64,000 nt of DNA from Paenibacillus guangzhouensis (GTDB taxonomy: Bacteria; Bacillota; Bacilli; Paenibacillales; Paenibacillaceae): the NCBI RefSeq assembly GCF_009363075.1, contig NZ_CP045293.1, positions 6,369,006 to 6,433,005 of the forward strand, given 5' to 3'. Numbering within the stretch: position 1 is the first letter of the stretch; each line of letters opens with the position of its first letter. Made by a program: the position numbers and the translations under genes. This document shows, piece after piece, positions 5,353-41,884 of the stretch. The notes under the pieces were generated by a model. It was given only the letters and a program-made list of their open reading frames with translations. It had not been told where the DNA came from and ran no database searches.

Positions 5353-5355
5353 CAT

Positions 5356-16598: not shown

Positions 16599-16981
16599 TT
16601 GTGAAACAAATTCGGCTTTCGAACAAAGCAAAAGAGCAGTTAATTCGACTAAAGGCGAAAACAGGTATCCAACAATGGAATATCTTATGCCGTTGGGCGC
16701 TCTGTCTATCAATAAAAGAACCAAACCCACCGATGGACATTGATTACCCAGCGGATAGCAACGTCGAAATGACTTGGCAGGTTTTTGGTGGAGAACATCA
16801 AGATATTTATGAGGCTCTAATTATTCAACGTTGTTTGGATGATGGTTTGGGAACTGATCCGAATGTGCTTGCAAAACAGTTTAGGTTACACTTACACAGA
16901 GGGATCGGACGACTCGCTGCACACGGTTCTAGGCTTAAAAAATCTACGGATCTATTAAAGGTAGGTTTAGGAAAATTCTAG
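16595..16981 (+). CDS. dndE: DNA phosphorothioation protein DndE
   Basis: 128-aa ORF whose ATG overlaps the dndD stop (ATGA). Size and position are typical of DndE. Confidence 0.7.
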   Translation: MIVKQIRLSNKAKEQLIRLKAKTGIQQWNILCRWALCLSIKEPNPPMDIDYPADSNVEMTWQVFGGEHQDIYEALIIQRCLDDGLGTDPNVLAKQFRLHLHRGIGRLAAHGSRLKKSTDLLKVGLGKF

Positions 16982-16993
16982 GAAAGAAGAGAT

Positions 16994-18124: not shown

Positions 18125-18160
18125 AAAAAGAAGCTGTGACTTACATAACAGCTTCTTTTA
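18125..18160. terminator. Bidirectional Rho-independent terminator shared by dndA (+) and the convergent Toprim gene (-)
   Basis: Perfect inverted repeat aaaagaagctgt ... acagcttctttt. Confidence 0.65.
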
Positions 18161-18974
18161 CTAATGTTGAGAATAACTTTTCAAAATAACAAATAAGTTC
18201 AATAATCTTCGGATCTTGTTGAATTTTTTGATCAGAAATATAATCAGTGTCACTTATTATTACCTTGTTAGTTTTTCCTGGCTTTTTTAATTGTCCAGCA
18301 ATCCCTATGCTCATCTTTTGAGTATCGGACGAATGTTTTTTAGGTATGTATGAACTGTTTTTTTGTAAAAACGTCTCTATATCTGTGAATAGTGGCTCAT
18401 GATCTTTAATCATAAGGGGAAGTACAACATCTTCAAGTTTCCCCATCCCATCTCCTTTTTCAAAAATGTAACAACCCAAGAATAACTCTTTATTATTTTT
18501 CTCCTCATTACAGATAATATCTAAATTAGATATTTCTTTAATTAATGGGAGGGTTTTGCTATACTCTTCTTTAAAAATATTTACTACAGATTCAATTCCT
18601 TTGTCGTCTGCATCATTAGTAAAAACAAAGGAGATATTTGTGATTTCAGTATCAGTTGCTGGTACTTCTAGAATATCAAGGTACTTGCCTATTAAGTCCC
18701 GTACTCTATCGTGCTTAGTATTTCCTCCAACACTGTATAATAACACAATTATTTTATCCTTATAGAGTATATCCATAGGCAGTAGCGGGTAGTAATTTTG
18801 TAAATTTAATTGGTTTAAATCATGTTTTTCTATTGCGTTCTTGAAAATTGCATTTAGTGGATAAGGTGCTTTGCCTATTTTTTCTCCATAATTTCGAAAA
18901 TTCATAGTTCGTAAAACCCTGTATATAAAAGCGACGTCGTGGGGACCTTCACATAGAATTAATACTACTTTCAT
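18141..18974 (-). CDS. Toprim-domain protein, OLD/RloB/AbiLii/DUF4276-like; predicted nuclease partner of the upstream ATPase
   Basis: 277 aa. N-terminal MKVVLILCEGPHDVAFI fits the Toprim hhhhEG..D glutamate motif. FVFTNDADDKG supplies a DxD motif. Start overlaps the ATPase stop by 4 nt. Confidence 0.6.
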   Translation of the reverse strand: MKVVLILCEGPHDVAFIYRVLRTMNFRNYGEKIGKAPYPLNAIFKNAIEKHDLNQLNLQNYYPLLPMDILYKDKIIVLLYSVGGNTKHDRVRDLIGKYLDILEVPATDTEITNISFVFTNDADDKGIESVVNIFKEEYSKTLPLIKEISNLDIICNEEKNNKELFLGCYIFEKGDGMGKLEDVVLPLMIKDHEPLFTDIETFLQKNSSYIPKKHSSDTQKMSIGIAGQLKKPGKTNKVIISDTDYISDQKIQQDPKIIELICYFEKLFSTLVKEAVM

Positions 18975-21007
18975 AAGCCACCTCTAAGATCCAAGTCAAG
19001 ATTCTCAATCAGCCTTGCCAAACTAGGGCCAGAATAGTAATTTGAAGTTATTTGGCTGTTCTCATAGTTAAATCTATAAGCAGATATGAATGAATTAGTC
19101 AAACAGTTGTTAACCAAAGCATTAATGCATTCTTTGCTATGAGAGGTAACAAAAATCTGCACATTAAATATTTCAGCAAGCTCACCGATGAATTTAGAGA
19201 ATTCGACCAATAGGGAGTGGTGTAATGCATTCTCTAATTCATCAATGAATATTACTCCATTCTCAACTGCGGCAAATTGAAGAGATATGTGGAATATCCT
19301 CTGGAAACCTTCTCCAAAATTTGTGATATCCACTGCTGATTTGAAATTTTTATGGTTTACAAGGAAACGCTTCATCTCCCCTGCTAATTCTATATTTTCT
19401 ATTCCGCTGTCTAATCGTGAATTAATAAACTTAACTATACGTTCGATATTTCGAGTTTCTACACTTTTTTCATGTAATCTGATTAGTTCTTCCTGATTTT
19501 GCATTGAAAAGGGAGTTGTGTAGGTTGAGAAACATAATTGATGTATTTTATCATAGAAGATTTCATTTTCTTTCTCGATAAAAAGTCTTGATTGCGTAGT
19601 GAATGTTCTATCCTCTACGGTTGCTATTAAATTCAAAGAAGTGATATACGAGTTTTTATTTAGATTATTAATACTTTCTTCTTCTTTAACTAATTTTGTT
19701 GATATAGATTTACCTTCGAAGTTACCAGATATATTAATTTCATCAGGAATAACGGAAGAAAGCCATGAAAAATCTAACTCATCATGAAATTTTCCTCTTC
19801 TTCTAAATACATCATAGTAACCGAAAATATCATTTAATCGCGTAAGAAAGTAAAGGGCTTCTAAAAAACTAGACTTACCCGTATTATTGATTCCAGCAAT
19901 AATATTGATCTTATTCAAATTTTCTACTCTAAAGTTCCTGAAGAGTTTATAGTTTTCAATGTTTACAGAACAGAAATGATTTGTTACTTTTTCAATAAGT
20001 GTATTCTTTAACACTACAGTATTTTTACTAAAATCGTTGCCTGTTTGAGGAGATATACTAATTGCTTCAAGTAACTCTTGCTTATCTTTATAGTTTAAAG
20101 CTTTATCAACTGATTTAGTATTTTCCATATACAGAAGAGTTCTTTCGTCATCCAAAATTGAGCGAAGATTTCTTATATCGGTGTAGTTTTTGATTATACG
20201 TTCACCGGGAGAGTTATCACCGTTAGTGTTATCGTCTAAATCTTCTTCATCAATTGATAACCAATTAAACAATCGATTAAGGTTCTTACTATTACTTGCT
20301 TTTAAGTTTTCCTCATCCCATTCAATCCATGCTCTAAGATTCGGGCTTTTGATAATTTCTTCAAAAATTGTGTACATATCTGGTTTAAATTGCTCCCCGA
20401 ATTCGCAGATTCGGAACTGATCTATTAAACCTAAAGTTCTTAGTGCACGTTTAATAGTTCCTGATTTAATCCCTAGAGTATCTGCAACGTCCTTCTCATT
20501 TAGTTTTTTCTCATGAATTAAATAATGGAGATATTTTGCCTGATTCCAAGCAGGCCAGCTTTTTGTACCGCTTATATGTTTTAGGCCCATAATAATTTGA
20601 TAATTTTCAAGACTTTTTTCTGAATAGACCACGACTGGGATTGTAGAAAAAATGCTAGGATCTAGCCCTCCAATATCTAAACCAAGTTTATAACGTTCGT
20701 ATAAAACTTTTAATGTAGAGACACGACGATTACCTTCGATTACTTCATATTTGTCTTCTGATAAATTAGTTACCTGGATTAAATCTACAGGCAAATACCC
20801 ATTTTTTGTAAAACTCAGAAGCAAATCATCTATGTTTTCATTTTTGTTCCCTGTAACAAGAATTCTTGTTCTAGTTTGTAAAACAGGGTCAGTTATATCT
20901 TCAATTTTTTGTCCAAATTCAATCTCATGAACTAAGCGGAAATTTTTGGGATCTAGATATAGATTATCAATGTGGACTTCTTTGTGCTCATAAGCTTTAT
21001 CCATCAT
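18971..21007 (-). CDS. Fusion protein: N-terminal ParB/Srx-like domain, an HTH, and a C-terminal ABC-type ATPase (AAA_15/AAA_21, as in AbiLi, AriA and the OLD N-terminal half)
   Basis: 678 aa. ParB-like motifs LYLDPKNFRL and YEVIEGNRRVSTL. HTH-like IKSGTIKRALRTLGL. Walker A IIAGINNTGKSSFLEAL, Walker B VIFIDELENALH, H-loop IFVTSHS. Confidence 0.7.
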   Translation of the reverse strand: MMDKAYEHKEVHIDNLYLDPKNFRLVHEIEFGQKIEDITDPVLQTRTRILVTGNKNENIDDLLLSFTKNGYLPVDLIQVTNLSEDKYEVIEGNRRVSTLKVLYERYKLGLDIGGLDPSIFSTIPVVVYSEKSLENYQIIMGLKHISGTKSWPAWNQAKYLHYLIHEKKLNEKDVADTLGIKSGTIKRALRTLGLIDQFRICEFGEQFKPDMYTIFEEIIKSPNLRAWIEWDEENLKASNSKNLNRLFNWLSIDEEDLDDNTNGDNSPGERIIKNYTDIRNLRSILDDERTLLYMENTKSVDKALNYKDKQELLEAISISPQTGNDFSKNTVVLKNTLIEKVTNHFCSVNIENYKLFRNFRVENLNKINIIAGINNTGKSSFLEALYFLTRLNDIFGYYDVFRRRGKFHDELDFSWLSSVIPDEINISGNFEGKSISTKLVKEEESINNLNKNSYITSLNLIATVEDRTFTTQSRLFIEKENEIFYDKIHQLCFSTYTTPFSMQNQEELIRLHEKSVETRNIERIVKFINSRLDSGIENIELAGEMKRFLVNHKNFKSAVDITNFGEGFQRIFHISLQFAAVENGVIFIDELENALHHSLLVEFSKFIGELAEIFNVQIFVTSHSKECINALVNNCLTNSFISAYRFNYENSQITSNYYSGPSLARLIENLDLDLRGGL

Positions 21008-21652: not shown

Positions 21653-22822
21653 ATGGCGATCGTCCAAGTGAGATCCACGAATCCGCAGTTCTCGTATTTA
21701 ATTAAGAAAAATCCGAATTCCGGCATGATGCTTCGCTCGATCCGCAGAGGTATGACGTACGGATGGTACACCGATGACCAGACCTATAACGTTTATTTTA
21801 AAGACGCAGACAATGAAATTTCCTATAAACAGCATGAGCAGGAGAATTTCGAATATCTAAATGTATCGAGGTACAACACGCCGTTATTTCCTCTTAATGC
21901 TATTAATGAATTCTTCTCCGCGCCGCTTAAGGCACAAGACGAACGAGATGTAGAGGGTTATGAGCATACCTTCTTTATTAATATGATACATATCGAACTG
22001 ATCCGGTATATTGAGTTTTTCGAGAAACATTTGAAAGATTTCTCTTTCGAAATCACCCACCAGGCCCATAAGAGCTATTCGCTCACCGTTACGACGAAGG
22101 AGAGCCTGTATCAGCTGCTGCATGCGGTCAGTGTATTATGCTTATTCCTGTCCATGTTCGGCAACGAGTACATCGATATCTCGGACAGCATTCTAGATAA
22201 GTACATCAAGAGCATGAATGTGATTGATGCACCATTCTATATTCGTAGCCTGTTCGTACGGAACTTCTTGTCTTCAAGAGATCGGTTTCATAAATACAAG
22301 GCAGAGCTTGAGAAAACGGAGCGATATGACATTCAGTTCGCCTACGGAGGTACGGCACTGCAGCGAAGAAATTATATCGGAAGCGCACTGGCTTTTGACA
22401 AATCGATCTTGGATGTAGGGTGTGGAGAGGGATTCTATGCGCTCCCTTTTGCGGGGAAAATAGAAGGCAGCTACTATGCGGTGGATATCCATGAGGAGTC
22501 TCTGGAGAAGGTAAGGCGTAAAGCTGAGGCCAGGGAGATCGATAACATCGTCATATTCGGCTCGATCGATCAGTTCCTGGAAAGCTATAACGGAGAGCAA
22601 GTCGACGTGATTCTTACGGAGGTTATTGAACATATGAGCCAGAATGAGGCCAAACTGCTGATCCATCAAATCTCCGCGCATGTCGATTTTGACAGATTTA
22701 TTATCACGACGCCTAACGCCGATTTTAATATCTACTATGAGCTGAACGATTTCCGTCATGACGACCATAAGTGGGAAATGGGCGAGGAATCATTCCAGCA
22801 GTGGATGCGCGATGTGATTTAG
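21653..22822 (+). CDS. hen1: Hen1-like RNA 3'-terminal 2'-O-methyltransferase (class I SAM-dependent MTase with an N-terminal Hen1-type domain)
   Basis: 389 aa. SAM motif I ILDVGCGEGFYAL. Hen1-type metal motif VILTEVIEHM. Immediately upstream of pnkp. Confidence 0.65.
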   Translation: MAIVQVRSTNPQFSYLIKKNPNSGMMLRSIRRGMTYGWYTDDQTYNVYFKDADNEISYKQHEQENFEYLNVSRYNTPLFPLNAINEFFSAPLKAQDERDVEGYEHTFFINMIHIELIRYIEFFEKHLKDFSFEITHQAHKSYSLTVTTKESLYQLLHAVSVLCLFLSMFGNEYIDISDSILDKYIKSMNVIDAPFYIRSLFVRNFLSSRDRFHKYKAELEKTERYDIQFAYGGTALQRRNYIGSALAFDKSILDVGCGEGFYALPFAGKIEGSYYAVDIHEESLEKVRRKAEAREIDNIVIFGSIDQFLESYNGEQVDVILTEVIEHMSQNEAKLLIHQISAHVDFDRFIITTPNADFNIYYELNDFRHDDHKWEMGEESFQQWMRDVI

Positions 22823-22921
22823 GATACGAATCTGCATGCTGAATTTGTAGCCGTTGGCGATGGCGTCAACAATATCAAGACGACGCAGGGCGTCATACTT
22901 AAGAGAAGGGGGGCCTGAACC

Positions 22922-25507
22922 ATGGATATTCAAACGAAAATTCATACGATTTTCATGCTGATCGGGTCTACCGAATGCGGCAAAACGACGTTCGCCAAGG
23001 AAGTACTAATTCCCGGGTTGCGTTTTGAGGATGCCAGCCGGAATGTTAGGGGCAACGTTCAATATTTATCCTCAGACCAGATCCGCCAGGAGGTTCTTGG
23101 CTATGAATACGATAAGTATGACCAAGTGATGCTCGAGGCTAGCGAACAAGCTTTTCACCTGTTGTTTGAACGGTTGAAGATGGCAACGTCTTTTCCGATC
23201 AATGCAGAGTTTGTGGTCGTTGATACAACTGGGTTGTCGGAGGATTTCCGCGCAAAGGTGAAGGAAGTTGCGTTTCAGAACAATTACAACCTTGAGGTCA
23301 TTGTCTTCGATTATCGCAAACGGGAAGATTATTATGCCTCGGAGCGTTCGAAGAAATTGATTACGAATCACATTAACCGTCTGAAAAAAGAAGTTCTCGG
23401 TTCGTTATCTCGCGAAGGATACGGCAAGATTCATAAAGTGCGCGCCAAGGATTTTTATCTGCCCGAAGAAGGAAGAGCGAACCCAGAATACAACATTGTC
23501 ATCGAGGATTTGGATTCTTATTTATCGACTGTTCTGCCACAGGATCAGCAATATATCATCATTGGGGATGTCCACGAATGTGTGGATGATCTGAAAGGGC
23601 TGCTCCTCGACCACGGGTACAAGATGGATGCAGGCAAGCTGGTTGTAACAGATAAGCTGAAGCATACCAAGCTCATTCTCGTTGGGGACTGGATTGATAA
23701 AGGCAAACAGACGCAGGACATCGTTCAGTTTTTATATGATAACCAGGAGCACTTCTACTTCGTGCTAGGGAATCACGAGAACTTCGTCGACAAGTATATC
23801 AAAGGTGAAATAAAAGGCGTCGATCAAGAGTTGCTCCATACGTATTTTGATTCAACGCAAGTGTTATTGAACGATTCGGTGCTACTGGATAAATTCCAGC
23901 ACCTCGTGTCGATTTCCAAACCGTTCTATCGGTATGTAGGCGTCAACGGTTCGTCCTTCTATGTCACACATGCCCCGTGCCGGAATAAATACATCGGGAA
24001 GCTGGATACGAATTCTATTCGACATCAGCGGAACTTCCGAATCGATCGGGAGGCGCCATTGGAGGGTCAACTTGCATTTCTGCAGGAGGAAGCGGTCAGA
24101 AATCATCCGTATCACGTGTTCGGTCACGTTGCAGCCAAGCAGTCTTTCCAAATCGGCAACAAGCTTCACATCGACACGGGAAGCGTGCATGGTAACCTAT
24201 TAACTTCCGTCAGTATCTCGTATAAGCCGTTTATGAAGTCCCACAAATCCCACCAAGCGGTGATTACTGAGGAATTGCAGACTTTATTCAAGCAAGAGCG
24301 AAAGGTATCCATGCAAGACCTTGCAGAGGACGATATCCGCAGACTCCATTATTGCTCGCGACACAAAATCAATTTCATCTCAGGTACCATGTCCCCAGCG
24401 GATAAGGACGACGAGACGAATGAGTTGGAATCCTTAAAGTGTGGACTCGAATATTTCAAAGAACGCGATGTCCAGCAGGTTGTTCTGCAGCCGAAATATA
24501 TGGGTTCGAGATGCAATATTTATTTGCATAGAGATCCGGAGCAATGCTTCGCTGTCAGTCGCAACGGTTACAAAATCAATCATGTGGATTTATCGGAGAT
24601 CTACGGTGAGCTGCTGCAAAAGTTCGGTAGCTATATGGAAGAGCAGAAGATTGCCATGATGATTCTAGATGGAGAGCTTCTTCCGTGGATGGCGCTTGGC
24701 GAAGGACTGATCGAAAGACAGTTTAAGCCTATTGAAAAATCGCTGGAGACTGAGCTAACATTCCTACAGCAAAACGGTTTTGAGGAAGCCTTTCTTAAGC
24801 TTATGACTGAGTACGAGGCGAGTGGTTTTGAACAAGATCAACATCATACAGCCAAGTCTGTGTTAAGTGATAAGTACGGCTCAAGCGTATACCAAAACTA
24901 TAAGTACGCCCATGATATTCGGGGAACGTATGTCCCATTATCCGAGCACATGAAGGCTTATCAAACGTATAGAAGACAGTTGGAGCTATATGCGCAAGAC
25001 GAGGCTATGAAGTATAAACCGTTTGCCGTGTTGAAAATCGTATATGATGACGGGCAGGAAGAAGTTCCAGAATGGAAGACCAGCGAGATGTATGCTTTTC
25101 TCTCGGAAGATGAAGCGATCACATTGGATCTATCCGAGCCGGACGGCTTGGAGCGAGCTGAACGTTACTTCTCGAAGCTTACGACGGAGAACCATATGGA
25201 AGGGATCGTAATCAAACCGGAGATAAGGAACGGAAAAACGGTACCGTATATGAAAGTGCGTAATCCCGATTATTTGTCCATCATTTACGGATATGACTAC
25301 AAGTTCCCGCATAAATACCGTAAGCTGCTTAAACAAAAGAATGTCAATCCAAAGCTTCGTACTTCACTCAAGGAGTACCAATTGGGGATGCAAATGCTAG
25401 CGGTACCATTTGATGCAATTACGCCTGAGCATGAGGCTTATAAAGAGATCGCTGCTAATCTACTGTTCGAGGTTGCACAGGAGCGGGAGATCGATCCGCG
25501 TCTATAA
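22922..25507 (+). CDS. pnkp: Bacterial polynucleotide kinase-phosphatase (Pnkp): P-loop kinase, calcineurin-like phosphoesterase and adenylyltransferase/ligase domains
   Basis: 861 aa. Kinase P-loop GSTECGKTTF. Phosphoesterase motifs GDVHEC, GDWIDKG and GNHEN. Ligase motif I-like KYMGSR. Confidence 0.85.
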   Translation: MDIQTKIHTIFMLIGSTECGKTTFAKEVLIPGLRFEDASRNVRGNVQYLSSDQIRQEVLGYEYDKYDQVMLEASEQAFHLLFERLKMATSFPINAEFVVVDTTGLSEDFRAKVKEVAFQNNYNLEVIVFDYRKREDYYASERSKKLITNHINRLKKEVLGSLSREGYGKIHKVRAKDFYLPEEGRANPEYNIVIEDLDSYLSTVLPQDQQYIIIGDVHECVDDLKGLLLDHGYKMDAGKLVVTDKLKHTKLILVGDWIDKGKQTQDIVQFLYDNQEHFYFVLGNHENFVDKYIKGEIKGVDQELLHTYFDSTQVLLNDSVLLDKFQHLVSISKPFYRYVGVNGSSFYVTHAPCRNKYIGKLDTNSIRHQRNFRIDREAPLEGQLAFLQEEAVRNHPYHVFGHVAAKQSFQIGNKLHIDTGSVHGNLLTSVSISYKPFMKSHKSHQAVITEELQTLFKQERKVSMQDLAEDDIRRLHYCSRHKINFISGTMSPADKDDETNELESLKCGLEYFKERDVQQVVLQPKYMGSRCNIYLHRDPEQCFAVSRNGYKINHVDLSEIYGELLQKFGSYMEEQKIAMMILDGELLPWMALGEGLIERQFKPIEKSLETELTFLQQNGFEEAFLKLMTEYEASGFEQDQHHTAKSVLSDKYGSSVYQNYKYAHDIRGTYVPLSEHMKAYQTYRRQLELYAQDEAMKYKPFAVLKIVYDDGQEEVPEWKTSEMYAFLSEDEAITLDLSEPDGLERAERYFSKLTTENHMEGIVIKPEIRNGKTVPYMKVRNPDYLSIIYGYDYKFPHKYRKLLKQKNVNPKLRTSLKEYQLGMQMLAVPFDAITPEHEAYKEIAANLLFEVAQEREIDPRL

Positions 25508-25608
25508 CAGGGATGAGGTGTCTGACTTAGAGTCGGGCACCTTTCCTTTGTACAAAAGATGTGTAAATCTATAATTCTCCTATCTCTTATTTTTCGAAAC
25601 AAGTATAA
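25192..25608 (+). repeat. Direct repeat copy 1 (about 416 bp): the last 315 bp of pnkp plus 100 bp of downstream sequence
   Basis: Near-identical to 26765..27180, including the hairpin gtgtctgactTAgagtcgggcac and the tail ttttcgaaacaagtataat. Confidence 0.85.
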
Positions 25609-25634
25609 TGCTCAATACTTCAGACTTTAGTGAA

Positions 25635-25815
25635 GTGCAACACGCGGCCAATTTAGGCGGAGACTCGGACACGATTGCCTAGGGCCTGGCGGGGGTGTAT
25701 TGGGTATATAGCAAGATTCCATCGGTGTTGCTGATGGATTATTGATCAAAGATCGACTAGAAGAAGTCATTTCGTATCTGTATCGTTACGGACAGGAGAG
25801 AAAGCCCCCTTCATA
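25635..25815 (+). pseudogene. Remnant of the C-terminus of an ADP-ribosylglycohydrolase gene (premature stop plus frameshift)
   Basis: Translates as VQHAANLGGDSDTIA*GLAGVYW...IPS then, frame-shifted, LIKDRLEEVISYLYRY. This is homologous to the 3' end of the ARH gene at 35190-35362 (AANLGNDSDTIGAIAGGLAGIHWGYREIPS...LINERLNDIALRLYRS). Confidence 0.55.
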
Positions 25816-26019
25816 AGCATAGAAAAGAAGCTTCGGCAATCATACTCAACGATTGTCGAAGCTTCTTTGTTATGTTCCTATTCCTCAACCAAATACACAA
25901 TCTCCCGAATATCCTCGCTATTCAGTGCCTCCGCAACTCGCTCAATATGGCTGAAATTAATATTCACCCGCTTGCCATTAGCCAACTCGCTTAATGCGGC
26001 ATGTCTTACATCGGACAGC

Positions 26020-26223
26020 CTAGGAAGGTTCTCGTCTGTCCTTCCATTCATTTACTTCTCTAGGATCAATATCTAGAAGCTCGCAGATATGCAAAGCTAT
26101 GGTCACTGTGGGCGTTGTTATACCATGTTCGATGTTTTGGTAATGTTTCAATGAAACGTTAATAGCTCGACTTAGCTTTTCTTGACTAATACCTTTATGT
26201 TTTCTGGCTTCACTTAGATTCAA
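26020..26223 (-). CDS. XRE-family HTH regulator, apparently disrupted at its 3' end (C-terminal homology continues out of frame to about 25880)
   Basis: 67-aa ORF with HTH GISQEKLSRAINVSLKHYQNIE. DNA at 25880-26040 is homologous to the 3' end of the XRE gene at 41574-41700 but is not in the same frame. Confidence 0.5.
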   Translation of the reverse strand: MNLSEARKHKGISQEKLSRAINVSLKHYQNIEHGITTPTVTIALHICELLDIDPREVNEWKDRREPS

Positions 26224-26429
26224 AAGTAAACAACTCCTAGCTGGTTTTTACCATCGTAACAAAAGTGTGAAATTTAAATAACAAATTATTATTGGCAAAT
26301 TTTAATACGAGAATTATAATTACTAATTAAGTGAACTGTTAACTTGGAAAGAGGTGAGGATATGGTATCGATGTATGAATAAAATAGTTTTGTGGTCCTA
26401 AAGGAAATTTATTCAACTATTTACATGAG

Positions 26430-26738
26430 ATGTCATTGAATAGCAGACAAAATGAGGTGGCAGATATGAATGATACATTTAAAAAATACGAAGAAGCCAT
26501 CCAAGAAGAACACACACTAATGCAAAGAATCTGCCTGTGCAAAGAACTCATCAACGTTATACTAGAGTATATCTCCAACAAGGCAGATAATATTCATTTG
26601 CCTACTGCGGAGGACATTGTGACTGCCATCCATACGATGGGGCAGGATCTCGATACAGAGCTGCTTCATCTGCAGTTAGAAATGGGAGTCCTCGAGAGGG
26701 AGATTAAAAGCTTAAGGTTACAGAAAGAATACCTCTAG
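26430..26738 (+). CDS. Small conserved 102-aa protein of unknown function, divergently paired with the XRE gene; copy 1 of a three-member family in this window
   Basis: Close paralog of 41885..42193 (the YEEAIQEEHTLMQRI...IHLPTAEDIVT.IHTM...DTELLHLQLEM block is conserved). Confidence 0.6.
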   Translation: MSLNSRQNEVADMNDTFKKYEEAIQEEHTLMQRICLCKELINVILEYISNKADNIHLPTAEDIVTAIHTMGQDLDTELLHLQLEMGVLEREIKSLRLQKEYL

Positions 26739-26764
26739 ATGCCTCGATGCGTACGCTGGAGACT

Positions 26765-27180
26765 ATATGGAAGGGATCGTGATCAAACCGGAGATATGGA
26801 ATGGAAAAACGGTACCGTATATGAAAGTGCGGAATCCCGATTATTTGTCCATCATCTATGGATACGACTACAAGTTCCCGCATAAATACCGCAAGCTGCT
26901 CAAACAAAAGAATGTTAATTCAAAGCTTCGTACTTCATTCAAGGAGTACCAGTTGGGGATGCAAATGCTAGCAGTACCATTTGATGCAATTACGCCTGAG
27001 CATGAGGCTTATAAAGTGATCGCTGCTAATCTACTGTTCGAGGTAGCGCAGGAGCGGGAGATCGATCCGCGTCTATAACAGGGATGAGGTGTCTGACTTA
27101 GAGTCGGGCACTTTTCCTTTGTACAAAAGATGCGTAAATCTATAATTCTCCTATCTCTTATTTTTCGAAACAAGTATAAT
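26765..27180 (+). repeat. Direct repeat copy 2, containing a duplicated pnkp 3' fragment (ORF 26767..27078, 103 aa, a non-functional gene fragment)
   Basis: The 103-aa product is near-identical to the last 103 aa of Pnkp with a few substitutions (R>W, P>S, L>F, E>V). The downstream 100 bp are also duplicated. Confidence 0.85.
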
Positions 27181-27228: not shown

Positions 27229-27784
27229 ATGTTAAATCAAGTTATGGAACAAAGCTTAAGCAAATTAATGACGAAGATTCTGCGGCACACACCGGAGGAT
27301 TTTGGAGTTCTCTTGGATCCTGAGGACAGTTCATGTCCGCTAGATTCGTTATTGGAAGCCCATTCAAGCACAGCCTAAGTGGTCGTTGGTTAAAATGGAA
27401 GATATAGAGCAGGTGGTCCGTAATTCAGAAAAGCAGCGTTTTGAAATCGAAGGCAGCCGCATCCGAGCAAGGTACGGTCATAGTCATGCCAAAGTCCAAT
27501 ATGCCCCGGGTGAGCCTCCGGCCATTCTATATCATGGAACGAATAAGAAGGCTCTTTCGTCGATCTTGAAGGAAGGGCTGCGACCGATGAGCCGGCAGTA
27601 TGTGCATTTGTCGGAAGGCACCCATTTTGCAACGCTGGCAGGGAGCCGCAGGGGAGAGCTTGTCATTCTCAAGGTAGACACCGCTCATGCCAAGCAGTTA
27701 GGAATTACATTCTACTACGCAGGGAACGAAGTATGGCTAGCTGACCGGGTGCCGCCTACAAGCTGCTCGGTCATGGAGCCCTAG
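27229..27784 (+). pseudogene. kptA: RNA 2'-phosphotransferase KptA/Tpt1 interrupted by a frameshift near 27370-27380
   Basis: N-terminal part LSKLMTKILRHTPEDFGVLLDPEDSSCPLDSLL lies in one frame and ends in a stop. The continuation KWSLVKMEDIEQVVRNSEKQRFEIEGSRIRARYGHS...HGT...RRGELVILKVD...VWLADRVP lies in the +1 frame. Together they align to Tpt1/KptA end to end. Confidence 0.7.
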
Positions 27785-27804
27785 GAAAAGGAGCAATTAT
27801 AATC

Positions 27805-28590
27805 ATGAATCATCCAATCATTGATATCGGTGTCAATTTGATGCATCGTTCGTTTCACCAAGATCGAGAGCAAGTGGTTGAAAGAGCGGCAGCGAATAAC
27901 GTTTCACCTCTTATCCTTACAGGAACGAGTCTAAGGAACAGCGTCGATGCGGCTCGATATGCAGGCCGTTACAAAGGAAAATTGTATTCTACAGCAGGAG
28001 TTCATCCGCATGATGCGAAGAGCTGCGACGATCGGACGATCGCGAAGCTCAGAGAATTGGCGGCGATGCCACAGGTTGTCGCAATTGGCGAGTGTGGTCT
28101 AGACTATAACCGGGACTTCTCGCCGCGGGATGTACAACGGAAATGGTTCGCTGAGCAAATTCAATTGGCGCTTGAGCTGAATATGCCGTTGTTTCTACAT
28201 GAGCGGGACGCATTCACGGATTTTACGGCGATGCTGAAGGAACATGCTGTACAGAAGGCAGTGGTACATTGCTTTACCGGGAATCTGAATGAACTGAAGA
28301 CATACCTGAATATGGGACTCTACATAGGCATTACAGGATGGATTTGCGATGAGCGGAGAGGGAAGCATCTGAGGGACCTGGTCCGCATCATCCCACTCGA
28401 CCGATTGATGATCGAGACGGATGCGCCGTTCTTAACCCCGCGCGATCTGAAGGAGAAGCCGGCAGACGGACGCAATGAGCCTGCATTCTTGCCGCATATT
28501 TTGGAAGCTGTAGCACGATGTACGGGTAAGACGGTAGAAGAGGTGGCGAAGGCTACGACGGAGACGGCCGTAGAGTTTTTCCGAATTTGA
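27805..28590 (+). CDS. tatD: TatD-family metal-dependent hydrolase/DNase
   Basis: 261 aa with TatD motifs GVHPHDA, AIGECGLDY, LFLHERDA, HCFTG and ETDAPFL. RBS AAAGGAG present. Confidence 0.85.
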   Translation: MNHPIIDIGVNLMHRSFHQDREQVVERAAANNVSPLILTGTSLRNSVDAARYAGRYKGKLYSTAGVHPHDAKSCDDRTIAKLRELAAMPQVVAIGECGLDYNRDFSPRDVQRKWFAEQIQLALELNMPLFLHERDAFTDFTAMLKEHAVQKAVVHCFTGNLNELKTYLNMGLYIGITGWICDERRGKHLRDLVRIIPLDRLMIETDAPFLTPRDLKEKPADGRNEPAFLPHILEAVARCTGKTVEEVAKATTETAVEFFRI

Positions 28591-28684: not shown

Positions 28685-29545
28685 TTACGAAGATCGTTCC
28701 TCATTGACTGTAGCGGTAGCGACGCCATATCGCTCCAACGCTTTCGTTGACGCCTTTAGCATCCTTCTTTTTAAATAATCTCCCTCGATCACCCGAACAC
28801 GTTTCCCGAGAAAACGAATCTTGGAAAGCAAATACTTCATTTCATCTCCTAGCAGAGAGACTCTGATTCGATAGGTATCATGATCCAGATCATACTCGAC
28901 ACTTTTTTCGAAGCTGGAGAAGGCGTAGAGGATGCGGGACAACTCTTCGTTATACATTGGAATAATCTCGATGACCACTTCACTTTTGCGCGAATCCAAT
29001 GTGTTACCGATTTCCTGAAGGATGCTCTCTGCAACTGATTGTCGGATCGATTCTTCTGTAACCTCATGAATATGCTTCAGCCGGGTGCTCATAAAGGCGT
29101 TATATCTGGTGTGGTACCATAGCAAATACCATTCTCTCTTGACCATGGAATATTCCAGCTTATACGGAAAACCTGAATGGTCTGTTTTCAATCGTCCGCT
29201 CTTAATCTCGTAAGTGATGCGAATTCCCGTCTTATTCATAATGTGCCGACGTAGTGTGGGCAGGAGCGGGTGATACACCTGTTTCTCCAGACTGCGGGCT
29301 TTTTCAATCAAATGAGAGGAGGTATCCATCACTTGATCCGACGCAAGGATGGAACGTAACTTGTTCAACGTGTCTGCAGTGAAAGCCTCGGCAGCCGCAG
29401 GATGTTCAAGCATCGTCTTCAGCCATGCCCGTTCATGCGAGGTGACCATGAAGGTACCGGAATCCTCCAAACGTGAGATGATCTGGTGGTTAAATATTTT
29501 CTCGAACAGGTTCATAGTAGGCTTGAATCTCCTTCCACTCGGCAA
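28685..29545 (-). CDS. WYL-domain protein without an obvious N-terminal HTH (WYL plus a C-terminal extension)
   Basis: 286 aa. WYL signature KREWYLLWYHTRYNAFMSTRLKHIH. Start uncertain (TTG at 29545 or ATG at 29515). Confidence 0.7.
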   Translation of the reverse strand: MPSGRRFKPTMNLFEKIFNHQIISRLEDSGTFMVTSHERAWLKTMLEHPAAAEAFTADTLNKLRSILASDQVMDTSSHLIEKARSLEKQVYHPLLPTLRRHIMNKTGIRITYEIKSGRLKTDHSGFPYKLEYSMVKREWYLLWYHTRYNAFMSTRLKHIHEVTEESIRQSVAESILQEIGNTLDSRKSEVVIEIIPMYNEELSRILYAFSSFEKSVEYDLDHDTYRIRVSLLGDEMKYLLSKIRFLGKRVRVIEGDYLKRRMLKASTKALERYGVATATVNEERSS

Positions 29546-30812
29546 TCATTTCCCGCCGGAGCTGCATAGGCTCTAGAATCTCGCAGCTGGAACCGAAACT
29601 GCGCAGCCATGGCTTGATTTCGGTCGTCCCGTTCACGGTAATTTCGTAGATAAACGCATGTTCATCTTCGGAGACGATCTGTCCCCACTGTCCCTGCAGC
29701 ATGACTCGGTCCTTGACGAAGTTTGGTTCGGACCCACCCGGATTATAGAATTTAGCGCGTACCGTCACCGGTCGTCCCGTATCGATGAGCCAACTATACT
29801 GCATTTTGGCGGCAAGTTCGGTCTTCTTTTCTTCACACCATGCCTCGTCCACAGATTCATCCTCTTCGATTTGCGTGATCCCTTCGATACGGTATTTGCG
29901 GATTCCCTCTCTGCCATAGGCAAGCAAATACCATCTACCATACTGATGATCGTACACAATCTTAAGCGGGAGCGTCTTCTCGGTTTTGCCTTCCGTATCC
30001 CGTTCAAATAAGGGGTTGGTATTCTTGGAGGCATAGCTTTTCTCGGACTTCGGCGAGAAGTAGAGAAAACGGACCTTCCTACGGTGACGGATCGCATGCA
30101 GCAGCGTGAACAGATGCGCCTCATCCAATATGCGTGAGTGATAGTGATATTTATATAAAAATGGCTCGACGGCATGCTGCTCGACTTGATTGCGCAAGAG
30201 AAGCTTCTTCAGTCCGTCACGCAGCAGATAACCTTGAACAGAAGGCACCTGCGTATTCGCCATGACGTCGACAAAATCATACAAATCGATAAGCTCTTCA
30301 TCCGATAAGCTGCGAACCAAGTCATCCTGAATGCGATAACGGTAGGGGCGAGGTCCAGGCTCTTTCTTGATGACTCCGACCTCCTCCAAGTATTTGAGAT
30401 CGGACCGAATTGTCTTCTCATCAGGGAGTGGAAGATCCGAAGATAGGCTGTTGCAGCATACATCCAAGAGCTCCATTGCCGTCAGAGCCTGCTCATTCAT
30501 CGCACCTAGCAGCAGCGAGATTCGTTGACTTTCGGATTCCTTGACGGATTTGGCGCGGAACAGGAACAAGAGCAGTGGATCGGTGGTGTCATAGTAGCTG
30601 TACCGAATCGTCTCGGATAATTCCTTACTCTGTTCTTGAGGCAAAACCTGATGCAGCGAGCTGACGACTTCTTTGAGCCGTCGTATTGTTTTATCGAATG
30701 TGTGGACGGAAATGCCAAGCCGTTCTGCGAATTGCTGTCTACTGAAGGCACCGCTGGTCAACACAAGCATACGTAGGAATTGGATTTCTTTATCAAAACT
30801 TTCCTTAGCCAA
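29490..30812 (-). CDS. HTH-WYL transcriptional regulator (YafY/PafB-like)
   Basis: 440 aa. N-terminal HTH FAERLGISVHTFDKTIRRLKE. WYL signature YGRWYLLAYGREGIRKYRIEGI. Overlaps the downstream WYL gene by 56 nt. Confidence 0.7.
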   Translation of the reverse strand: MAKESFDKEIQFLRMLVLTSGAFSRQQFAERLGISVHTFDKTIRRLKEVVSSLHQVLPQEQSKELSETIRYSYYDTTDPLLLFLFRAKSVKESESQRISLLLGAMNEQALTAMELLDVCCNSLSSDLPLPDEKTIRSDLKYLEEVGVIKKEPGPRPYRYRIQDDLVRSLSDEELIDLYDFVDVMANTQVPSVQGYLLRDGLKKLLLRNQVEQHAVEPFLYKYHYHSRILDEAHLFTLLHAIRHRRKVRFLYFSPKSEKSYASKNTNPLFERDTEGKTEKTLPLKIVYDHQYGRWYLLAYGREGIRKYRIEGITQIEEDESVDEAWCEEKKTELAAKMQYSWLIDTGRPVTVRAKFYNPGGSEPNFVKDRVMLQGQWGQIVSEDEHAFIYEITVNGTTEIKPWLRSFGSSCEILEPMQLRREMIAEWKEIQAYYEPVRENI

Positions 30813-31136: not shown

Positions 31137-31441
31137 GGAGCGATTTTGGTAGCATACTCGACTTCCAATCGAGCGAAAATTATTCAAAAGACCAAAAGGA
31201 TAGAATCCCTAGCGGCTATTTTAAGCGCACTGCAGGAAGGCTTTGCAGTCCGTGGATACCGATGGAGCGAAATTTCTGGAAGTTCTCTTGGATGGAAGAA
31301 TAAGTAGTGCGGCTGAAGCAGGGTCACGCTCTTATTCCAAAATCCTTGCAAACGAAGGATGGATTGCTCCGCTAAAGCGAGATTCCGCCAGAACGCAGTG
31401 GGATTCTAAGTCCATTGGTCGAACTATTTAGGGGGTTAACA

Positions 31442-32560
31442 ATGATGATTACAAAAGTAACGATTCAAGCAGACGAACGCGGTTTGCTATTTGATAAAGG
31501 AAGTTATGTGAAAAAGCTGATGCCGGGGACGTATCGCTTTTCCATGTGGTCTAAATCCACCGTTGTGGTGATGAATATCGCTAAACCGTTCCATGTGGAC
31601 GGAAAAGATCTGAAGTTGTTCCTTCATGACGAGAATCTCGTGCGTGAGCTCGATATTGTGCGGGTGCAAGATCATGAATACGTTCTGCACTACGAGGACG
31701 GACAATACGTACAATTGCTTAAGCCTGGTACCTACGCCTATTGGAATATGCTTAAAAAACATACCTTTGTGCATGCGGATATCCGACAACCTGAATTGCC
31801 TGTCGAGGTTAATCGTTCAATTATATCGAAGCTTACTGCCAATGTGCAGTCCTACGAAATCGCGAGTTACGAATCCGGATTTTTGTTCTATGACCACGTT
31901 CTACAACGAGAGCTGTCTCCTGGTAAGTACTACTTCTGGAGAGGTCCAGTCTCGACAATGGTTAAGACGATTGACCTAAGACAGCAACAAATGGATCTGA
32001 TCGGCCAGGAAATCATGACAGAAGACAAAGTCACGCTGCGTTTGAATTTCGTCTGCCAGTACAAGATCGTGAATCCACTGCGCGCGCTAGAAATGAAGTC
32101 ATTCGACGACCAAATCCATATCCAGCTTCAGCTTGCGCTTCGGGAATATGTCGGGGCTCTAAAGTTGGACGATCTATTGAGACGCAAAGAGGACGTAGCG
32201 ACGTTCGTACTTACTCGACTGCGGGAGAAGGAGGAAGAGTTCGGCGTGCAATTTCTGAGTGCAGGGGTGAAAGATGTCGTCTTGCCGGGGGAAATGCGAG
32301 ATATCTTGAACACCGTCCTGCTCGCGGAGAAGAGGGCACAGGCGAATCTCATTACGCGTCGCGAAGAGACGGCCTCGACCCGAAGCCTGCTTAACACCGC
32401 GAAGCTGATGGACGAGAATCAGACGTTGTTCCGGTTGAAAGAGTTGGAATTCCTCGAGAAAATATGCGAGAAAGTCGGGTCCATCTCACTATCGGGCGGC
32501 GGGGATCTGTTGGAACGTCTGAGTGCACTTATTGGTGAGAGGAAGGCTACGAGCAAGTAG
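31442..32560 (+). CDS. SPFH/Band-7 (stomatin/flotillin-like) domain protein with an N-terminal triple beta-repeat
   Basis: C-terminal half carries the SPFH pattern (TEDKVTLRLNFVCQYKIVNP...KDVVLPGEMRDIL...AEKRAQANLI). The N-terminal half carries three repeats: KLMPGTYRFSMW, LLKPGTYAYWNM and LSPGKYYFWRGP. The ATG at 31442 follows AGGGGG. Confidence 0.75.
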   Translation: MMITKVTIQADERGLLFDKGSYVKKLMPGTYRFSMWSKSTVVVMNIAKPFHVDGKDLKLFLHDENLVRELDIVRVQDHEYVLHYEDGQYVQLLKPGTYAYWNMLKKHTFVHADIRQPELPVEVNRSIISKLTANVQSYEIASYESGFLFYDHVLQRELSPGKYYFWRGPVSTMVKTIDLRQQQMDLIGQEIMTEDKVTLRLNFVCQYKIVNPLRALEMKSFDDQIHIQLQLALREYVGALKLDDLLRRKEDVATFVLTRLREKEEEFGVQFLSAGVKDVVLPGEMRDILNTVLLAEKRAQANLITRREETASTRSLLNTAKLMDENQTLFRLKELEFLEKICEKVGSISLSGGGDLLERLSALIGERKATSK

Positions 32561-32605
32561 TGAACACCATGCGGATGAGATTTTCCGATCCGTGCTGAGA
32601 GAAAT

Positions 32606-34195
32606 ATGGGAAAAAGGGTGATAAAAACAATGGTTATTTTCTTCAATAAAGCAACACGGTCGCCTTGGGAAGGGAAGGCTTCCATTTACGCATATATTCG
32701 TGATCAAGGGGAACATGTTGGCGATTCCTTGCCGGATGACGAGGAATACTGGTCAGACAGTCCAATCAGGTGGGTAGCCGGCGGAATGGATGGAGCATTA
32801 GGGCATCATGCAGGGAGCAGTGACGTGCCAAATGAGGCGCACGAGCTTGCGAACCTATTGGCGAAGCACTCCAGGAAACCGAATAACTCAACGAGAAAAG
32901 AGCTTTATGCTAGAGTTGTGACGGCTCAAGTAGGGGGCATGATGGACGCCATCTTGGACGAGGTGCGCAAACATCCCGGCATCCAAGCAGGTGTTGTTTT
33001 CGACGAGGCCAGATGGTTCGTTGAGCATGCGGCACATCGTAATGTCGTTAAATTCGGAATTGCGCTTTTGGGACTCTTTCAGAACGAACAGGTTAAAGAA
33101 CTGCTTCTTACGCTTGGTAGACATGAAGAATTTACACTATATTCCGCAGTAGCGATTCAGAATGGGATGGAAGACAGTAACGAGGTTCTCTTTGAGCTAG
33201 CTCAACATGTCCATGGTTGGGGGAAGATAAATCTCGTCGAGAGACTCGAGCCGAATACAACAGAAATTAAAGATTGGCTGCTTCGACATGGCTGCCAAAA
33301 TAGTATCATGAACGAATATCTAGCCTGTATTTGTGCGAGAAATGGAGATTTGCGAGAGGCTCTCGTACCGGATCAGGTCGACCGAGAATTATTTGAAGGA
33401 GCGTCTACGATCATCGAAGCGTTGTTGTATGGCGGTCCTGCCGAGGATATCGATGATTATGAACATGCGCCACAGGTGCTATCTGATTACGTGAGGCTGT
33501 CCGGGGAAATGTGCTCAACCACCAAGCATCTATCTGTCATGTTGAACATTCGAGACTTCTTAGATCAGGATGAGGAGAAGTGGGAAGGGCGGATGTCAGC
33601 GGGATGGACAGCGCAGGCAAGAGGCGATATTCATGATGCTTGTCAATTCATCATTGGTGATTCCAAGTGGAGCAGCTTAATTATGGATGCGGTCAGCTCT
33701 AATGACTCACAGAACCGCTACTATGGCGTGGCTTGTGCGGAAAAGCTCGGCATGGATATTTGGGAGACGCTCTATAGCCAATTAGCTGTAAATCCGCTTC
33801 AAGACGCACATTACCTTCAGCTCATGAAATCGAATGATCCCGCTAGAATTCAGAAGTTGGTTCATTTTGCTACGGAACATTTGCCGCTGCCGCAGATTGC
33901 TACAGGCCCTGGGGATGAAATGGGATTCGGCAAAGAATATGAAGCGCATAGAAGCTTGGACACCATTCTGCAAAGCTTGGATTCGTTCGAGGGGATGGGC
34001 AAGGAGCTGATCCTTACCGGACTGAAAAGTCCTGTGATCCGGAATCGGAATATGGCGATCATGGCGCTAGAGGGGTGGAACGTTGCTTCTTGGGGAGATC
34101 AGCTTATAAAAGCAGTTATACATTTATCAGGTATAGAGCCCGATGATTCTGTAAAAGAGCGACTTCAACAGCTGCGGACGGAAAAAGAAGTATGA
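32606..34195 (+). CDS. Hypothetical protein (about 520 aa), predicted alpha-helical, unknown function
   Basis: Long uninterrupted ORF in the same orientation as the SPFH gene. Alternative start at 32630. No recognised motif. Confidence 0.45.
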   Translation: MGKRVIKTMVIFFNKATRSPWEGKASIYAYIRDQGEHVGDSLPDDEEYWSDSPIRWVAGGMDGALGHHAGSSDVPNEAHELANLLAKHSRKPNNSTRKELYARVVTAQVGGMMDAILDEVRKHPGIQAGVVFDEARWFVEHAAHRNVVKFGIALLGLFQNEQVKELLLTLGRHEEFTLYSAVAIQNGMEDSNEVLFELAQHVHGWGKINLVERLEPNTTEIKDWLLRHGCQNSIMNEYLACICARNGDLREALVPDQVDRELFEGASTIIEALLYGGPAEDIDDYEHAPQVLSDYVRLSGEMCSTTKHLSVMLNIRDFLDQDEEKWEGRMSAGWTAQARGDIHDACQFIIGDSKWSSLIMDAVSSNDSQNRYYGVACAEKLGMDIWETLYSQLAVNPLQDAHYLQLMKSNDPARIQKLVHFATEHLPLPQIATGPGDEMGFGKEYEAHRSLDTILQSLDSFEGMGKELILTGLKSPVIRNRNMAIMALEGWNVASWGDQLIKAVIHLSGIEPDDSVKERLQQLRTEKEV

Positions 34196-34475: not shown

Positions 34476-35362
34476 TGATGAAAGATGATCCATTATTCAA
34501 TAGAATCAAAGGCGGACTATACGGCGTGGCTGTCGGCGATGCACTTGGAGGAACGACCGAGTTCATGCATCCTCGTGAGATTAAAGCCCAGTACGGCTAT
34601 TTAACAGAAATCATCGGAGGCGGCGTCTGGTAGCTGGAACCAGGGGAAGTAACCGATGATACCATGATGACGCTATGCGTCGCGGAGGGGATTCTGGAGA
34701 ACCGCTTAGATCCGATGGAACCGATTGGGCGCCGATTTTTGGCTTGGTATCATACGAAACCAAAGGATATTGGCAATACCATTCGCCATGTGTTCAAAAT
34801 TTATGAGGGAGATTGGTTCGAGGCGGCGTTTCTCTCGGATATGGATCTAGGTCAAAGCGGGGGAAATGGGTCCTTGATGCGCTGTCTTCCGGTGGCGCTG
34901 GCCTATACCGATCTGCATGATTTGGAACGCGTATCACGAATGCAATCGAAAATGACACATTATGACGAGCAGTGCAGCGAGGTGTGCGTCATCTATAATC
35001 GAATAGCCCGCAGGCTCCTGCATGGGGGAGTGTTAAAAGATGCGATTCTGTCTGAGGTGTCCGGAACGGAATATGAGGCGTTTATCAAGAAAGCGCCTGA
35101 TTGCGAACCGAGCGGGTATGTCGTGCATACGTTCCGCTGGGTGCTGCACATTCTGCTTCATGCTTCGAGCTTCAGCGAAGTCGTGCAACAAGCGGCTAAT
35201 CTGGGGAACGATTCCGATACGATCGGGGCCATCGCCGGTGGTCTTGCGGGAATCCATTGGGGGTACCGCGAAATTCCATCGACCTACTCTGATGTCATCC
35301 TGATCAACGAACGTCTGAACGACATTGCCTTGCGATTGTATCGATCACGAGTAGGGGGATAA
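34476..35362 (+). pseudogene. ADP-ribosylglycohydrolase (ARH/DraG family) interrupted by an in-frame TAG at 34631-34633
   Basis: N-terminal GLYGVAVGDALGGTTEF...GGGVW then TAG, then LEPGEVTDDTMM...GNGSLMR...GNDSDTIGAIAGGLAG. All family hallmarks lie in one frame on both sides of the stop. Confidence 0.7.
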
Positions 35363-41855: not shown

Positions 41856-41884
41856 AACTGGTACGTATATACGTACCGATAGAG

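Follow-up and report, generated by a model that had tools for sequence, protein, structure and literature searches.

Does a bacterial RNA 2'-phosphotransferase gene whose two halves lie in different reading frames still encode an enzyme, and does its position among RNA-repair genes suggest what such an enzyme might do? We considered these questions for a Tpt1/KptA gene of Paenibacillus guangzhouensis, using a stretch of 64,000 nucleotides (nt) of contig NZ_CP045293.1 (positions 6,369,006 to 6,433,005, forward strand), which is called the window below and whose own numbering is used for all coordinates. What bacterial Tpt1 acts on in the cell has yet to be established (PMC6097658). A preliminary description of the window had noted the divided gene, a Pnkp/Hen1 pair upstream of it, a TatD-family gene directly downstream and ADP-ribosylglycohydrolase (ARH) genes nearby. 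Here we report that the two halves are separated by a single extra base, which is most probably a real mutation, and that the predicted Tpt1 and TatD genes recur as a pair in the Paenibacillaceae, often in the company of Hen1-Pnkp.

One extra base separates the two halves of a Tpt1/KptA gene

The start codon of the Tpt1 gene, an ATG at 27229, is preceded by the sequence GAAGGAG, and the open reading frame (ORF) that begins there ends at the TAA at 27376-27378 after 49 codons. A Pfam scan of this 49-amino-acid (aa) ORF by itself gave no match, and its homology therefore had to be shown through close homologues: 34 of its first 44 residues (77%) are identical to those of the closest homologue, P0001 (E = 3e-25), with the alignment ending at Ala44. 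The second frame, which has no stop between 27344 and the TAG at 27782-27784, matched PF01885 with an E value of 1.2e-30 over profile positions 47-176 of 177. Its codons 45-184 comprise the remainder of the RNA-binding lobe and the entire NAD+ lobe, including Arg70 and Arg122. The preliminary description had placed both halves in different frames with a stop at 27376-27378, and the ORFs, the PF01885 match and the alignment with P0001 confirm this arrangement. Removing one C from the CCC run at 27359-27361 yielded a 184-aa Tpt1 that shares 89% identity with P0001 over 100% of its length and that aligns without a gap across the junction LLEA/IQAQPKW, where A44, I45, Q48 and W51 are invariant (alignment A1). 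At the DNA level, the closest relative, a locus from near P. terrigena (L001), has GAA GCT ATT at the site, against GAA GCC C ATT in the window. The letters at the site are GAAGCTATT in L001, GAAGCCATT in the P. harenae locus L005 and the commonest relatives, and GAAGCCCATT in the window, and the repaired 21-mer across the site is identical to that of L005. Because the repaired protein and the DNA of relatives align across the site, we place a CC-to-CCC insertion between codons 44 and 45.

Residues 9-178 of the repaired protein aligned with solved Tpt1 structures (E = 2e-34 for 9ld4 and 6e-32 for 6e3a). The likeness to the solved Tpt1/KptA enzymes (PDB 6e3a and 6ede from Clostridium thermocellum, 9ld4 and 1wfx; E values of 1e-32 to 1e-34) includes conserved LRH, KxRF/YE and RQYVH motifs, whereas the window ORF, unlike theirs, is broken after residue 44. 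The score of the repaired protein against the NCBIfam equivalog model lies below the cut-off (173 versus 239 bits), as expected for a lineage-specific subfamily. The match of both lobes, which is far beyond chance, identifies the window gene as a predicted Tpt1/KptA RNA 2'-phosphotransferase. Residues R19, H20, R70 and R122 of the repaired protein are invariant in alignment A1 and conserved relative to 9ld4. In the Tpt1 of Runella slithyformis (RslTpt1), an Arg-His-Arg-Arg tetrad formed by Arg16, His17, Arg64 and Arg119 has been described, and all four residues are required (PMC6097658). By motif, which is how the numbering was mapped, the four window residues probably correspond to this tetrad.

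No single uninterrupted ORF in the window covers both Tpt1 lobes. The predicted product as encoded is a 49-aa peptide with Arg19-His20 but with neither Arg70 nor Arg122 nor the NAD+ lobe. The break thus parts Arg19-His20 from Arg70 and Arg122, all four of which have counterparts needed in RslTpt1, which suggests that neither piece can be an active enzyme. Read as encoded, the gene is dead and is a pseudogene of its family.

Origin of the frameshift

The preliminary description offered three readings of this break, namely a pseudogene, a sequencing error and programmed frameshifting. The first two still stand, and the third found no support, as relatives do not share the shift and it is not accompanied by a slippery site, a stimulator or an RNA structure. 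The two Tpt1 frames do overlap at 27344-27375, where a +1 shift would join them, and both halves are well conserved, which would suit a programmed +1 ribosomal frameshift, or transcriptional slippage, that yields full-length Tpt1 from both frames. However, Tpt1 is a single ORF in all 81 loci of a Tpt1-anchored survey of the Paenibacillaceae (80 from GTDB genomes and one ENA scaffold; loci carry L numbers throughout) and in all of the 120 best database homologues, which are 158-205 aa long and each cover at least 84% of the query. No slippery heptamer of the form X XXY YYZ occurs in 27300-27400, which was one of two features that the preliminary description had proposed to look for, and the GCC-C-AUU site contains no stop codon, rare codon or strong Shine-Dalgarno-like stimulator. 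The other feature, a downstream RNA structure, was also not found: a stretch of 121 nt that covers the site and the sequence that follows it gave z = +1.44, with 185 of 200 shuffled sequences folding at least as well. A run of three C residues is too short for polymerase slippage. In prfB, +1 frameshifting relies on a CUU UGA C site and on a Shine-Dalgarno-like stimulator upstream of it, both conserved across bacteria. The window gene resembles prfB in that a +1 shift is needed to join its frames and differs in lacking the CUU UGA C site, the stimulator and any conservation of this kind. With the split unconserved and with neither a slippery or hungry-codon site nor a stimulator, we rejected programmed frameshifting, which we regard as very improbable. 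A reading in which the two pieces are made separately as a split enzyme, or in which the C-terminal piece functions alone, seems to us more improbable still. An ORF of 129-132 aa spanning the whole NAD+ lobe is open from TTG 27386 or ATG 27395, but neither of these internal starts is preceded by a Shine-Dalgarno sequence. In addition, the break sits within the N-terminal RNA-binding lobe rather than between the lobes, it divides a set of residues that RslTpt1 requires together (PMC6097658), and no relative shows such a split of Tpt1.

We conclude that the Tpt1 frameshift is most probably a real mutation, because the gene cluster around it has taken several other hits, among them in-frame TAG codons in Hen1 and ARH, a decayed ARH relic and a duplicated Pnkp 3' end (Table 1). 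The Hen1 and ARH stops are substitutions and are therefore not products of indel-type consensus errors. Furthermore, all other examined window genes look full length, as judged from Pfam-scanned ORFs and from six genes compared with L001, without a further frameshift among them, and CCC is very short as a homopolymer. Weighing against a real mutation is a set of observations that would fit an assembly or consensus error, by which the organism would in fact encode an unbroken Tpt1 of 184 aa and the additional C would have arisen in the assembly, a single contig of 6.9 Mb. The lesion lengthens a homopolymer by one base, and long-read consensus sequences err most often in just this respect, homopolymer length. 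Once repaired, the sequence does not differ from that of relatives across the site, and a search of metagenome contigs with the exact 33-mer spanning the frameshift gave 0 matches, with no independent copy there of the frameshifted allele of this species, which is known from one genome. The statistics of purifying selection on Tpt1 also resemble those of its intact neighbours. The ratio of non-synonymous to synonymous substitution rates (dN/dS) relative to L001 is 0.124 for Tpt1, compared with 0.052 for TatD and a low 0.079 for the remainder of the ARH gene. Polarised by an outgroup, the window branch of Tpt1 carries 16 synonymous and 8 non-synonymous changes and the L001 branch 12 and 9, and at alignment columns with a conservation of 97% or more the window protein deviates once (other sequences: mean 0.36, maximum 3). 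Neither the conserved-column deviations nor the pairwise dN/dS nor the polarised branch counts gave a signal of relaxed selection on Tpt1, which indicates that the lesion is either very recent or an error. We consider an error rather unlikely, and we infer that the lesion is not programmed and would be very recent in evolutionary terms. RefSeq accessions exist for Pnkp and TatD, and the Hen1, Pnkp-fragment and Tpt1 pieces are gene calls without accessions, which fits pseudogene flags for these calls. Standard annotation probably already flags Tpt1 as a pseudogene.

Tpt1 and TatD form a recurrent pair in the Paenibacillaceae

In the window, the gene directly downstream of Tpt1 is an intact TatD gene that keeps its own AAGGAG site and whose product matched PF01026 (1.5e-74, 251 bits, profile 1-252 of 253) and TIGR00010 (217.9 bits against a cut-off of 206). 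The gap between the two genes, up to the ATG at 27805, is 20 nt rather than the 21 first given. A full-length TatD gene lies directly downstream of Tpt1 in approximately 55 of the 81 surveyed loci and a truncated or split one in five more (L007, L028, L048, L049 and L080). In Paenibacillus puerhi SJY2 the two are fused in frame into one ORF of 452 aa (L003, 10001-11356; ..SCSVMETKERATRIMNHPIVDIG..).

Upstream of Tpt1, intact Hen1-Pnkp genes were immediately adjacent in 22 of the 81 loci. In 15 loci, the Hen1-Pnkp genes are of the type found in the window (Hen1_N, PF22032) and share the orientation of Tpt1, and in 7 further loci they are of the canonical Hen1_L/Pnkp type (PF12623; PNKP_ligase 490 bits). 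Genes of both subfamilies often lie 25-170 base pairs (bp) from Tpt1. Among the species whose cluster is intact are P. aestuarii (L004), Gorillibacterium sp. sgz5001074 (L006) and P. turpanensis (L015). Eight further loci retain only Hen1-Pnkp remnants upstream of Tpt1, which include a P. piri Pnkp pseudogene in four frames (L002, 7515-9843) and Pnkp 3' stubs of 95-170 bp (L001, L007, L010, L013 and L017). In L001, the sequence upstream of Hen1 is joined to the last 95 bp of Pnkp. This remnant occupies the same place as in the window, which indicates that Hen1-Pnkp-Tpt1-TatD was contiguous in the ancestor and that Hen1-Pnkp was deleted in L001. Besides the broken Pnkp of L002 and the truncated or split TatD of L007, L048 and L049, decay of the same cluster is seen in Gorillibacterium massiliense (L013, 12298-13228), whose ARH gene is split, and such decay in other species speaks for a real lesion in the window as well.

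Genes related to ADP-ribose recur in these clusters. ARH orthologues are present in 13 of the 81 Tpt1 loci, and 11 of the 13 also contain Hen1-Pnkp or its remnants (Fisher p = 6e-6, uncorrected for phylogeny). A metagenomic protein from ENA (P0320, 1294 aa) combines TPR repeats, a Tpt1 domain (357-522) and an ADP-ribosylglycohydrolase domain (719-1008). It is the only relevant one among the long Tpt1 proteins, which mostly have unrelated partners (DHQ synthase, shikimate kinase, GNAT, TPR and HEAT). NADAR together with an R2K ATP-grasp gene stands in place of ARH in L002, and PARG and NADAR flank Hen1-Pnkp in P. elgii. R2K-clade ATP-grasp, NADAR and microbial PARG genes were seen in the same clusters at L002 11877-13585, L018 12338-13237 and L085 2891-4273. 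By family membership, the NADAR, PARG and R2K genes are predicted further ADP-ribose-processing partners.

An overlapping pair of WYL genes lies beside Tpt1-TatD in 30 of the 81 loci. Elsewhere this pair is found divergently upstream of Ro60-RlaP-Hen1-Pnkp (L083, L087, L095, L097-L100 and others). WYL transcription factors have been proposed as sensors of RNA ends that regulate repair systems (PMC9503650), and the WYL pair is likely a heterodimeric regulator of the RNA-repair system. Taken together, gene order in the survey shows predicted Tpt1 and TatD genes as a conserved pair in the Paenibacillaceae, often placed between Hen1-Pnkp upstream and ARH, with the WYL pair nearby.

Strength of the link between Tpt1 and Hen1-Pnkp

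We also viewed the association from the side of Hen1-Pnkp, in a Pnkp-anchored survey of 4 genomes and 68 metagenome loci, of which 44 loci had at least 3 kilobases (kb) of downstream sequence. Tpt1 was present in only 3 of these 44. One of these three, L087, holds the complete set of WYL pair, Ro60, RlaP, Hen1, Pnkp, Tpt1, a TatD gene that is truncated, and ARH. Partners seen more often with the window-type Hen1-Pnkp were the WYL pair (14 loci), RlaP (12) and Ro60 (8).

These counts bear on a different reading, by which Tpt1-TatD is an independent unit that sits beside a hot spot of coming-and-going defence and repair cassettes, Hen1-Pnkp among them, so that adjacency would be uninformative about function. 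The scarcity of Tpt1 at Pnkp loci and the commoner partners Ro60, RlaP and the WYL pair argue for such independence, as do the 51 of 81 Tpt1 loci without a trace of Hen1-Pnkp and the survival of Tpt1-TatD where Hen1-Pnkp has been lost by deletion. In the window, the Pnkp stop is followed by a terminator-like hairpin, and the region is a defence island with AbiC, Dnd and AAA_21-DUF3226 genes. All of these points, and the fact that the locus counts are not phylogenetically independent, weigh against a functional cluster. On the other side, two distantly related Hen1/Pnkp subfamilies, of the PF22032 and PF12623 types, are both found directly upstream of Tpt1 and share its orientation, genes for ARH, NADAR and PARG turn up repeatedly in these clusters, fusions of Tpt1 with TatD and with ARH exist, and in P. 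guangzhouensis inactivation has affected three of the cluster's genes together. We take independence to be a serious possibility, although one that we are inclined to doubt. Because of the hairpin after the Pnkp stop, co-transcription of Hen1-Pnkp with Tpt1 is no more than possible.

Judged by its distribution, the link of Tpt1 to Hen1-Pnkp appears to be real but facultative and concentrated in the Paenibacillaceae. The larger RNA-end-processing neighbourhood suggested by the preliminary description is therefore supported from the side of Tpt1, with its 22 intact Hen1-Pnkp pairs, 8 sets of remnants, approximately 55 TatD genes and one fusion, and is weak from the side of Pnkp. A survey of Pnkp/Hen1 loci for Tpt1 and ARH had also been suggested. 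At the Pnkp-anchored loci the co-occurrence of Tpt1 is weak, and in the Tpt1-anchored survey ARH accompanies Tpt1 in 13 loci, 11 of them with Hen1-Pnkp or remnants. The thematic link that had been drawn to the ADP-ribosylglycohydrolases gains support from this co-location and from the TPR-Tpt1-ARH fusion protein.

Organization of the locus in the window

The features of the locus are listed in Table 1.

Table 1. Coordinates of the features at the P. guangzhouensis Tpt1 locus, in window numbering.
Feature	Position	Strand	Remarks
Hen1 (Hen1_N and S-adenosylmethionine-dependent methyltransferase), with in-frame TAG at 22820-22822	21653-22918	+	389 aa versus 421 aa in homologues
Pnkp, intact, 861 aa; kinase, metallophosphoesterase and ligase	22922-25507	+	100% identical to WP_152396594.1 (Paenibacillus guangzhouensis)
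Direct repeat, copy 1: Pnkp 3' end, terminator-like hairpin (25515-25543) and the leader that precedes Tpt1 elsewhere	25171-25609	+	
Decayed relic of an ADP-ribosylglycohydrolase 3' end, with stops and a frameshift	25609-25792	+	71.5% identity to the ARH 3' end of L001
Inserted module: HTH_3 (XRE-type) gene (26020-26223, minus strand) and 102-aa ORF (26430-26738, plus strand)	26020-26738		Paralogous to window 41517-42193
Direct repeat, copy 2: orphan Pnkp 3' fragment, hairpin (27086-27114) and Tpt1 leader	26743-27180	+	Orthologous to the L001 remnant
Tpt1/KptA codons 1-44, with catalytic Arg19-His20	27229-27360	+	Frame 1; followed by 5 out-of-frame codons and TAA
Extra-base site, CCC run (CC to CCC)	27359-27361	+	Between codon 44 (GCC, Ala) and codon 45 (ATT, Ile)
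Premature TAA	27376-27378	+	Frame 1, reached after the insertion
Tpt1/KptA codons 45-184 and TAG stop	27362-27784	+	+1 frame; PF01885, 1.2e-30; end-to-end alignment
TatD-family 3'-5' exonuclease/hydrolase (predicted), intact	27805-28590	+	Identical to RefSeq WP_152396598.1
Overlapping WYL pair: WYL (286 aa) and HTH-WYL-WCX (440 aa)	28685-30812	-	
ADP-ribosylglycohydrolase (ARH), with in-frame TAG at 34631-34633 (codon 52 of 294)	34478-35362	+	CAG in L001

The window Pnkp contains AAA_33, Metallophos and PNKP_ligase domains and adjoins a Hen1 gene with Hen1_N and methyltransferase domains. The two genes are adjacent, as in a Pnkp/Hen1 cassette, and are not both intact owing to the TAG in Hen1. 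This TAG cuts off the conserved last 32 residues, whose codons persist in frame to the TGA at 22916-18 (..WMRDVI*DTNLHAEFVAVGDGVN..RGA*); most Hen1 homologues in its cluster are 421 aa long, compared with 389 aa for the window product. Amber read-through of the two TAG codons in Hen1 and ARH was considered and dropped, as nothing supports it. The pair scored far below the NCBIfam equivalog cut-offs (62 versus 340 bits and 186 versus 750 bits), which places the window Hen1 and Pnkp in a divergent subfamily. Like the canonical cassette of Clostridium thermocellum and Anabaena (PMC6097658, PMC4411300), they combine a kinase-phosphatase-ligase with a 3'-terminal 2'-O-methyltransferase, here predicted by sequence. 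They differ from it in that the window Hen1 has Hen1_N (PF22032) rather than Hen1_L (PF12623) and carries a premature stop. We found no description of Tpt1, TatD or ARH as a partner of the canonical cassette in the literature examined.

From the Pnkp stop at 25507 to the start of Tpt1 we measured 1721 nt, in agreement with the earlier estimate of about 1.7 kb. This spacer is a mosaic insertion, with an insert of 1.1 kb, that is flanked by the 439-bp direct repeat, whose copies (25171-25609 and 26743-27180) are 94.3% identical. The preliminary description had missed the stops in Hen1 and ARH, the mosaic nature of the spacer and the second Pnkp 3' end that the repeat provides. Copy 2 holds an orphan Pnkp C-terminal ORF of 103 aa (26767-27078). 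The ARH 3' relic abuts copy 1 directly at 25609, and the join looks as if a second cluster copy had lost everything from Tpt1 up to the last part of ARH. The divergent HTH_3 gene and 102-aa ORF, the latter with no family match, are present in the window in two copies (25821-26738 and 41517-42193) that are approximately 83% identical and in a third, partial copy (54600-54708), and the module they form may be a mobile or cassette-boundary element. A scan for promoters detected no sigma-70 consensus on the plus strand upstream of Tpt1. A TATAAT sequence at 27175-27180 is part of a block that is conserved between the window and L001 and is not accompanied by a good -35 element. Rfam and tRNA scans gave nothing in or near the Tpt1 locus.

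Several further features of the window were observed around these genes. Between the WYL pair and ARH lie a Band_7/SPFH gene and a 529-aa ORF without a family match (31415-34195), in the same order as in L001, and Band_7 recurs near several Tpt1 and Pnkp loci. The defence island upstream of Hen1 (5-21007) begins with an AbiC-like gene (5-973). Within it, large genes that end with a HerA/DUF87-type ATPase, possibly DndFGH-like, occupy 3538-11881, and these are followed at 12003-18121 by genes for DndB, a PAPS-reductase (DndC-like) and an SMC-like ATPase, a small ORF and a cysteine-desulfurase-like gene. The island ends with AAA_21 and DUF3226 genes on the minus strand (18141-21007). Farther downstream, a T-box leader (RF00230, 99.1 bits) at 42240-42502 precedes an ORF at 42616-43701.

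A possible role in the response to RNA damage

One interpretation of the recurrent arrangement is that Hen1-Pnkp, Tpt1-TatD and ARH would form a single extended RNA-damage response module in the Paenibacillaceae, probably under the control of the WYL pair, in which Tpt1 acts on ends made by Pnkp. We offer this interpretation tentatively and consider it unlikely. In such a module, Pnkp would heal breaks made by ribotoxins, which leave 2',3'-cyclic-phosphate and 5'-OH ends, and Hen1 would methylate the 3'-terminal ribose. Tpt1 would use NAD+ either to strip a 2'-phosphate at or near the junction or to ADP-ribosylate 5'-phosphate ends, giving a 5'-phospho-ADP-ribose cap. ARH, or NADAR or PARG in its place, would erase the ADP-ribose mark, and TatD would trim 3' ends. 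In P. guangzhouensis, the ADP-ribose arm (Tpt1 and ARH) and Hen1 would have been lost, with their joint inactivation representing the loss of one functional unit.

Parts of this scheme have counterparts in known systems. Tpt1/KptA/TRPT1 enzymes ADP-ribosylate the 5'-phosphate ends of RNA and DNA in vitro, and ARH3, PARG and macrodomain hydrolases reverse the modification (PMC8883491). The Paenibacillaceae clusters resemble this reversible system in that Tpt1 and ARH genes recur together in 13 of 81 loci and that both domains occur in P0320. They differ from it in that the reaction is known in vitro only and with eukaryotic ARH3, and the Paenibacillus ARH is a mere candidate for acting on nucleic-acid ends. 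A second likeness is to the RNA-repair cluster of Runella slithyformis, where RslTpt1, with its Arg-His-Arg-Arg tetrad, is likewise encoded beside end-healing and end-sealing enzymes and where adjacency was read as a clue to repair (PMC6097658). The Runella cluster contains HD-Pnk and a separate ligase, in contrast to the Hen1, trifunctional Pnkp, TatD, ARH and WYL genes of the window, in which Tpt1 is also disrupted. A Tpt1 gene within a bacterial RNA-repair cluster is therefore already known from Runella (PMC6097658), and the Paenibacillaceae cluster is a modestly novel variant. The literature that we examined on Tpt1/KptA with TatD, Hen1, Pnkp, ARH or WYL, which did not include the likeliest source, the survey of Burroughs and Aravind (2016), describes no such cluster.

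The frameshift itself carries little weight, as it adds one more broken gene, and the disrupted P. guangzhouensis copy is unsuited for testing the function of Tpt1. The conserved cluster is of moderate interest. The survey supplies a concrete and recurrent context for bacterial Tpt1, with Hen1-Pnkp upstream, TatD downstream, and ADP-ribose hydrolases and WYL regulators in the same neighbourhood. It also makes testable, in intact clusters, the hypothesis that Tpt1 acts on RNA ends broken by ribotoxins and that ARH reverses or cleans up the ADP-ribose products. If it is true, the module would give bacterial Tpt1 its first physiological substrate.

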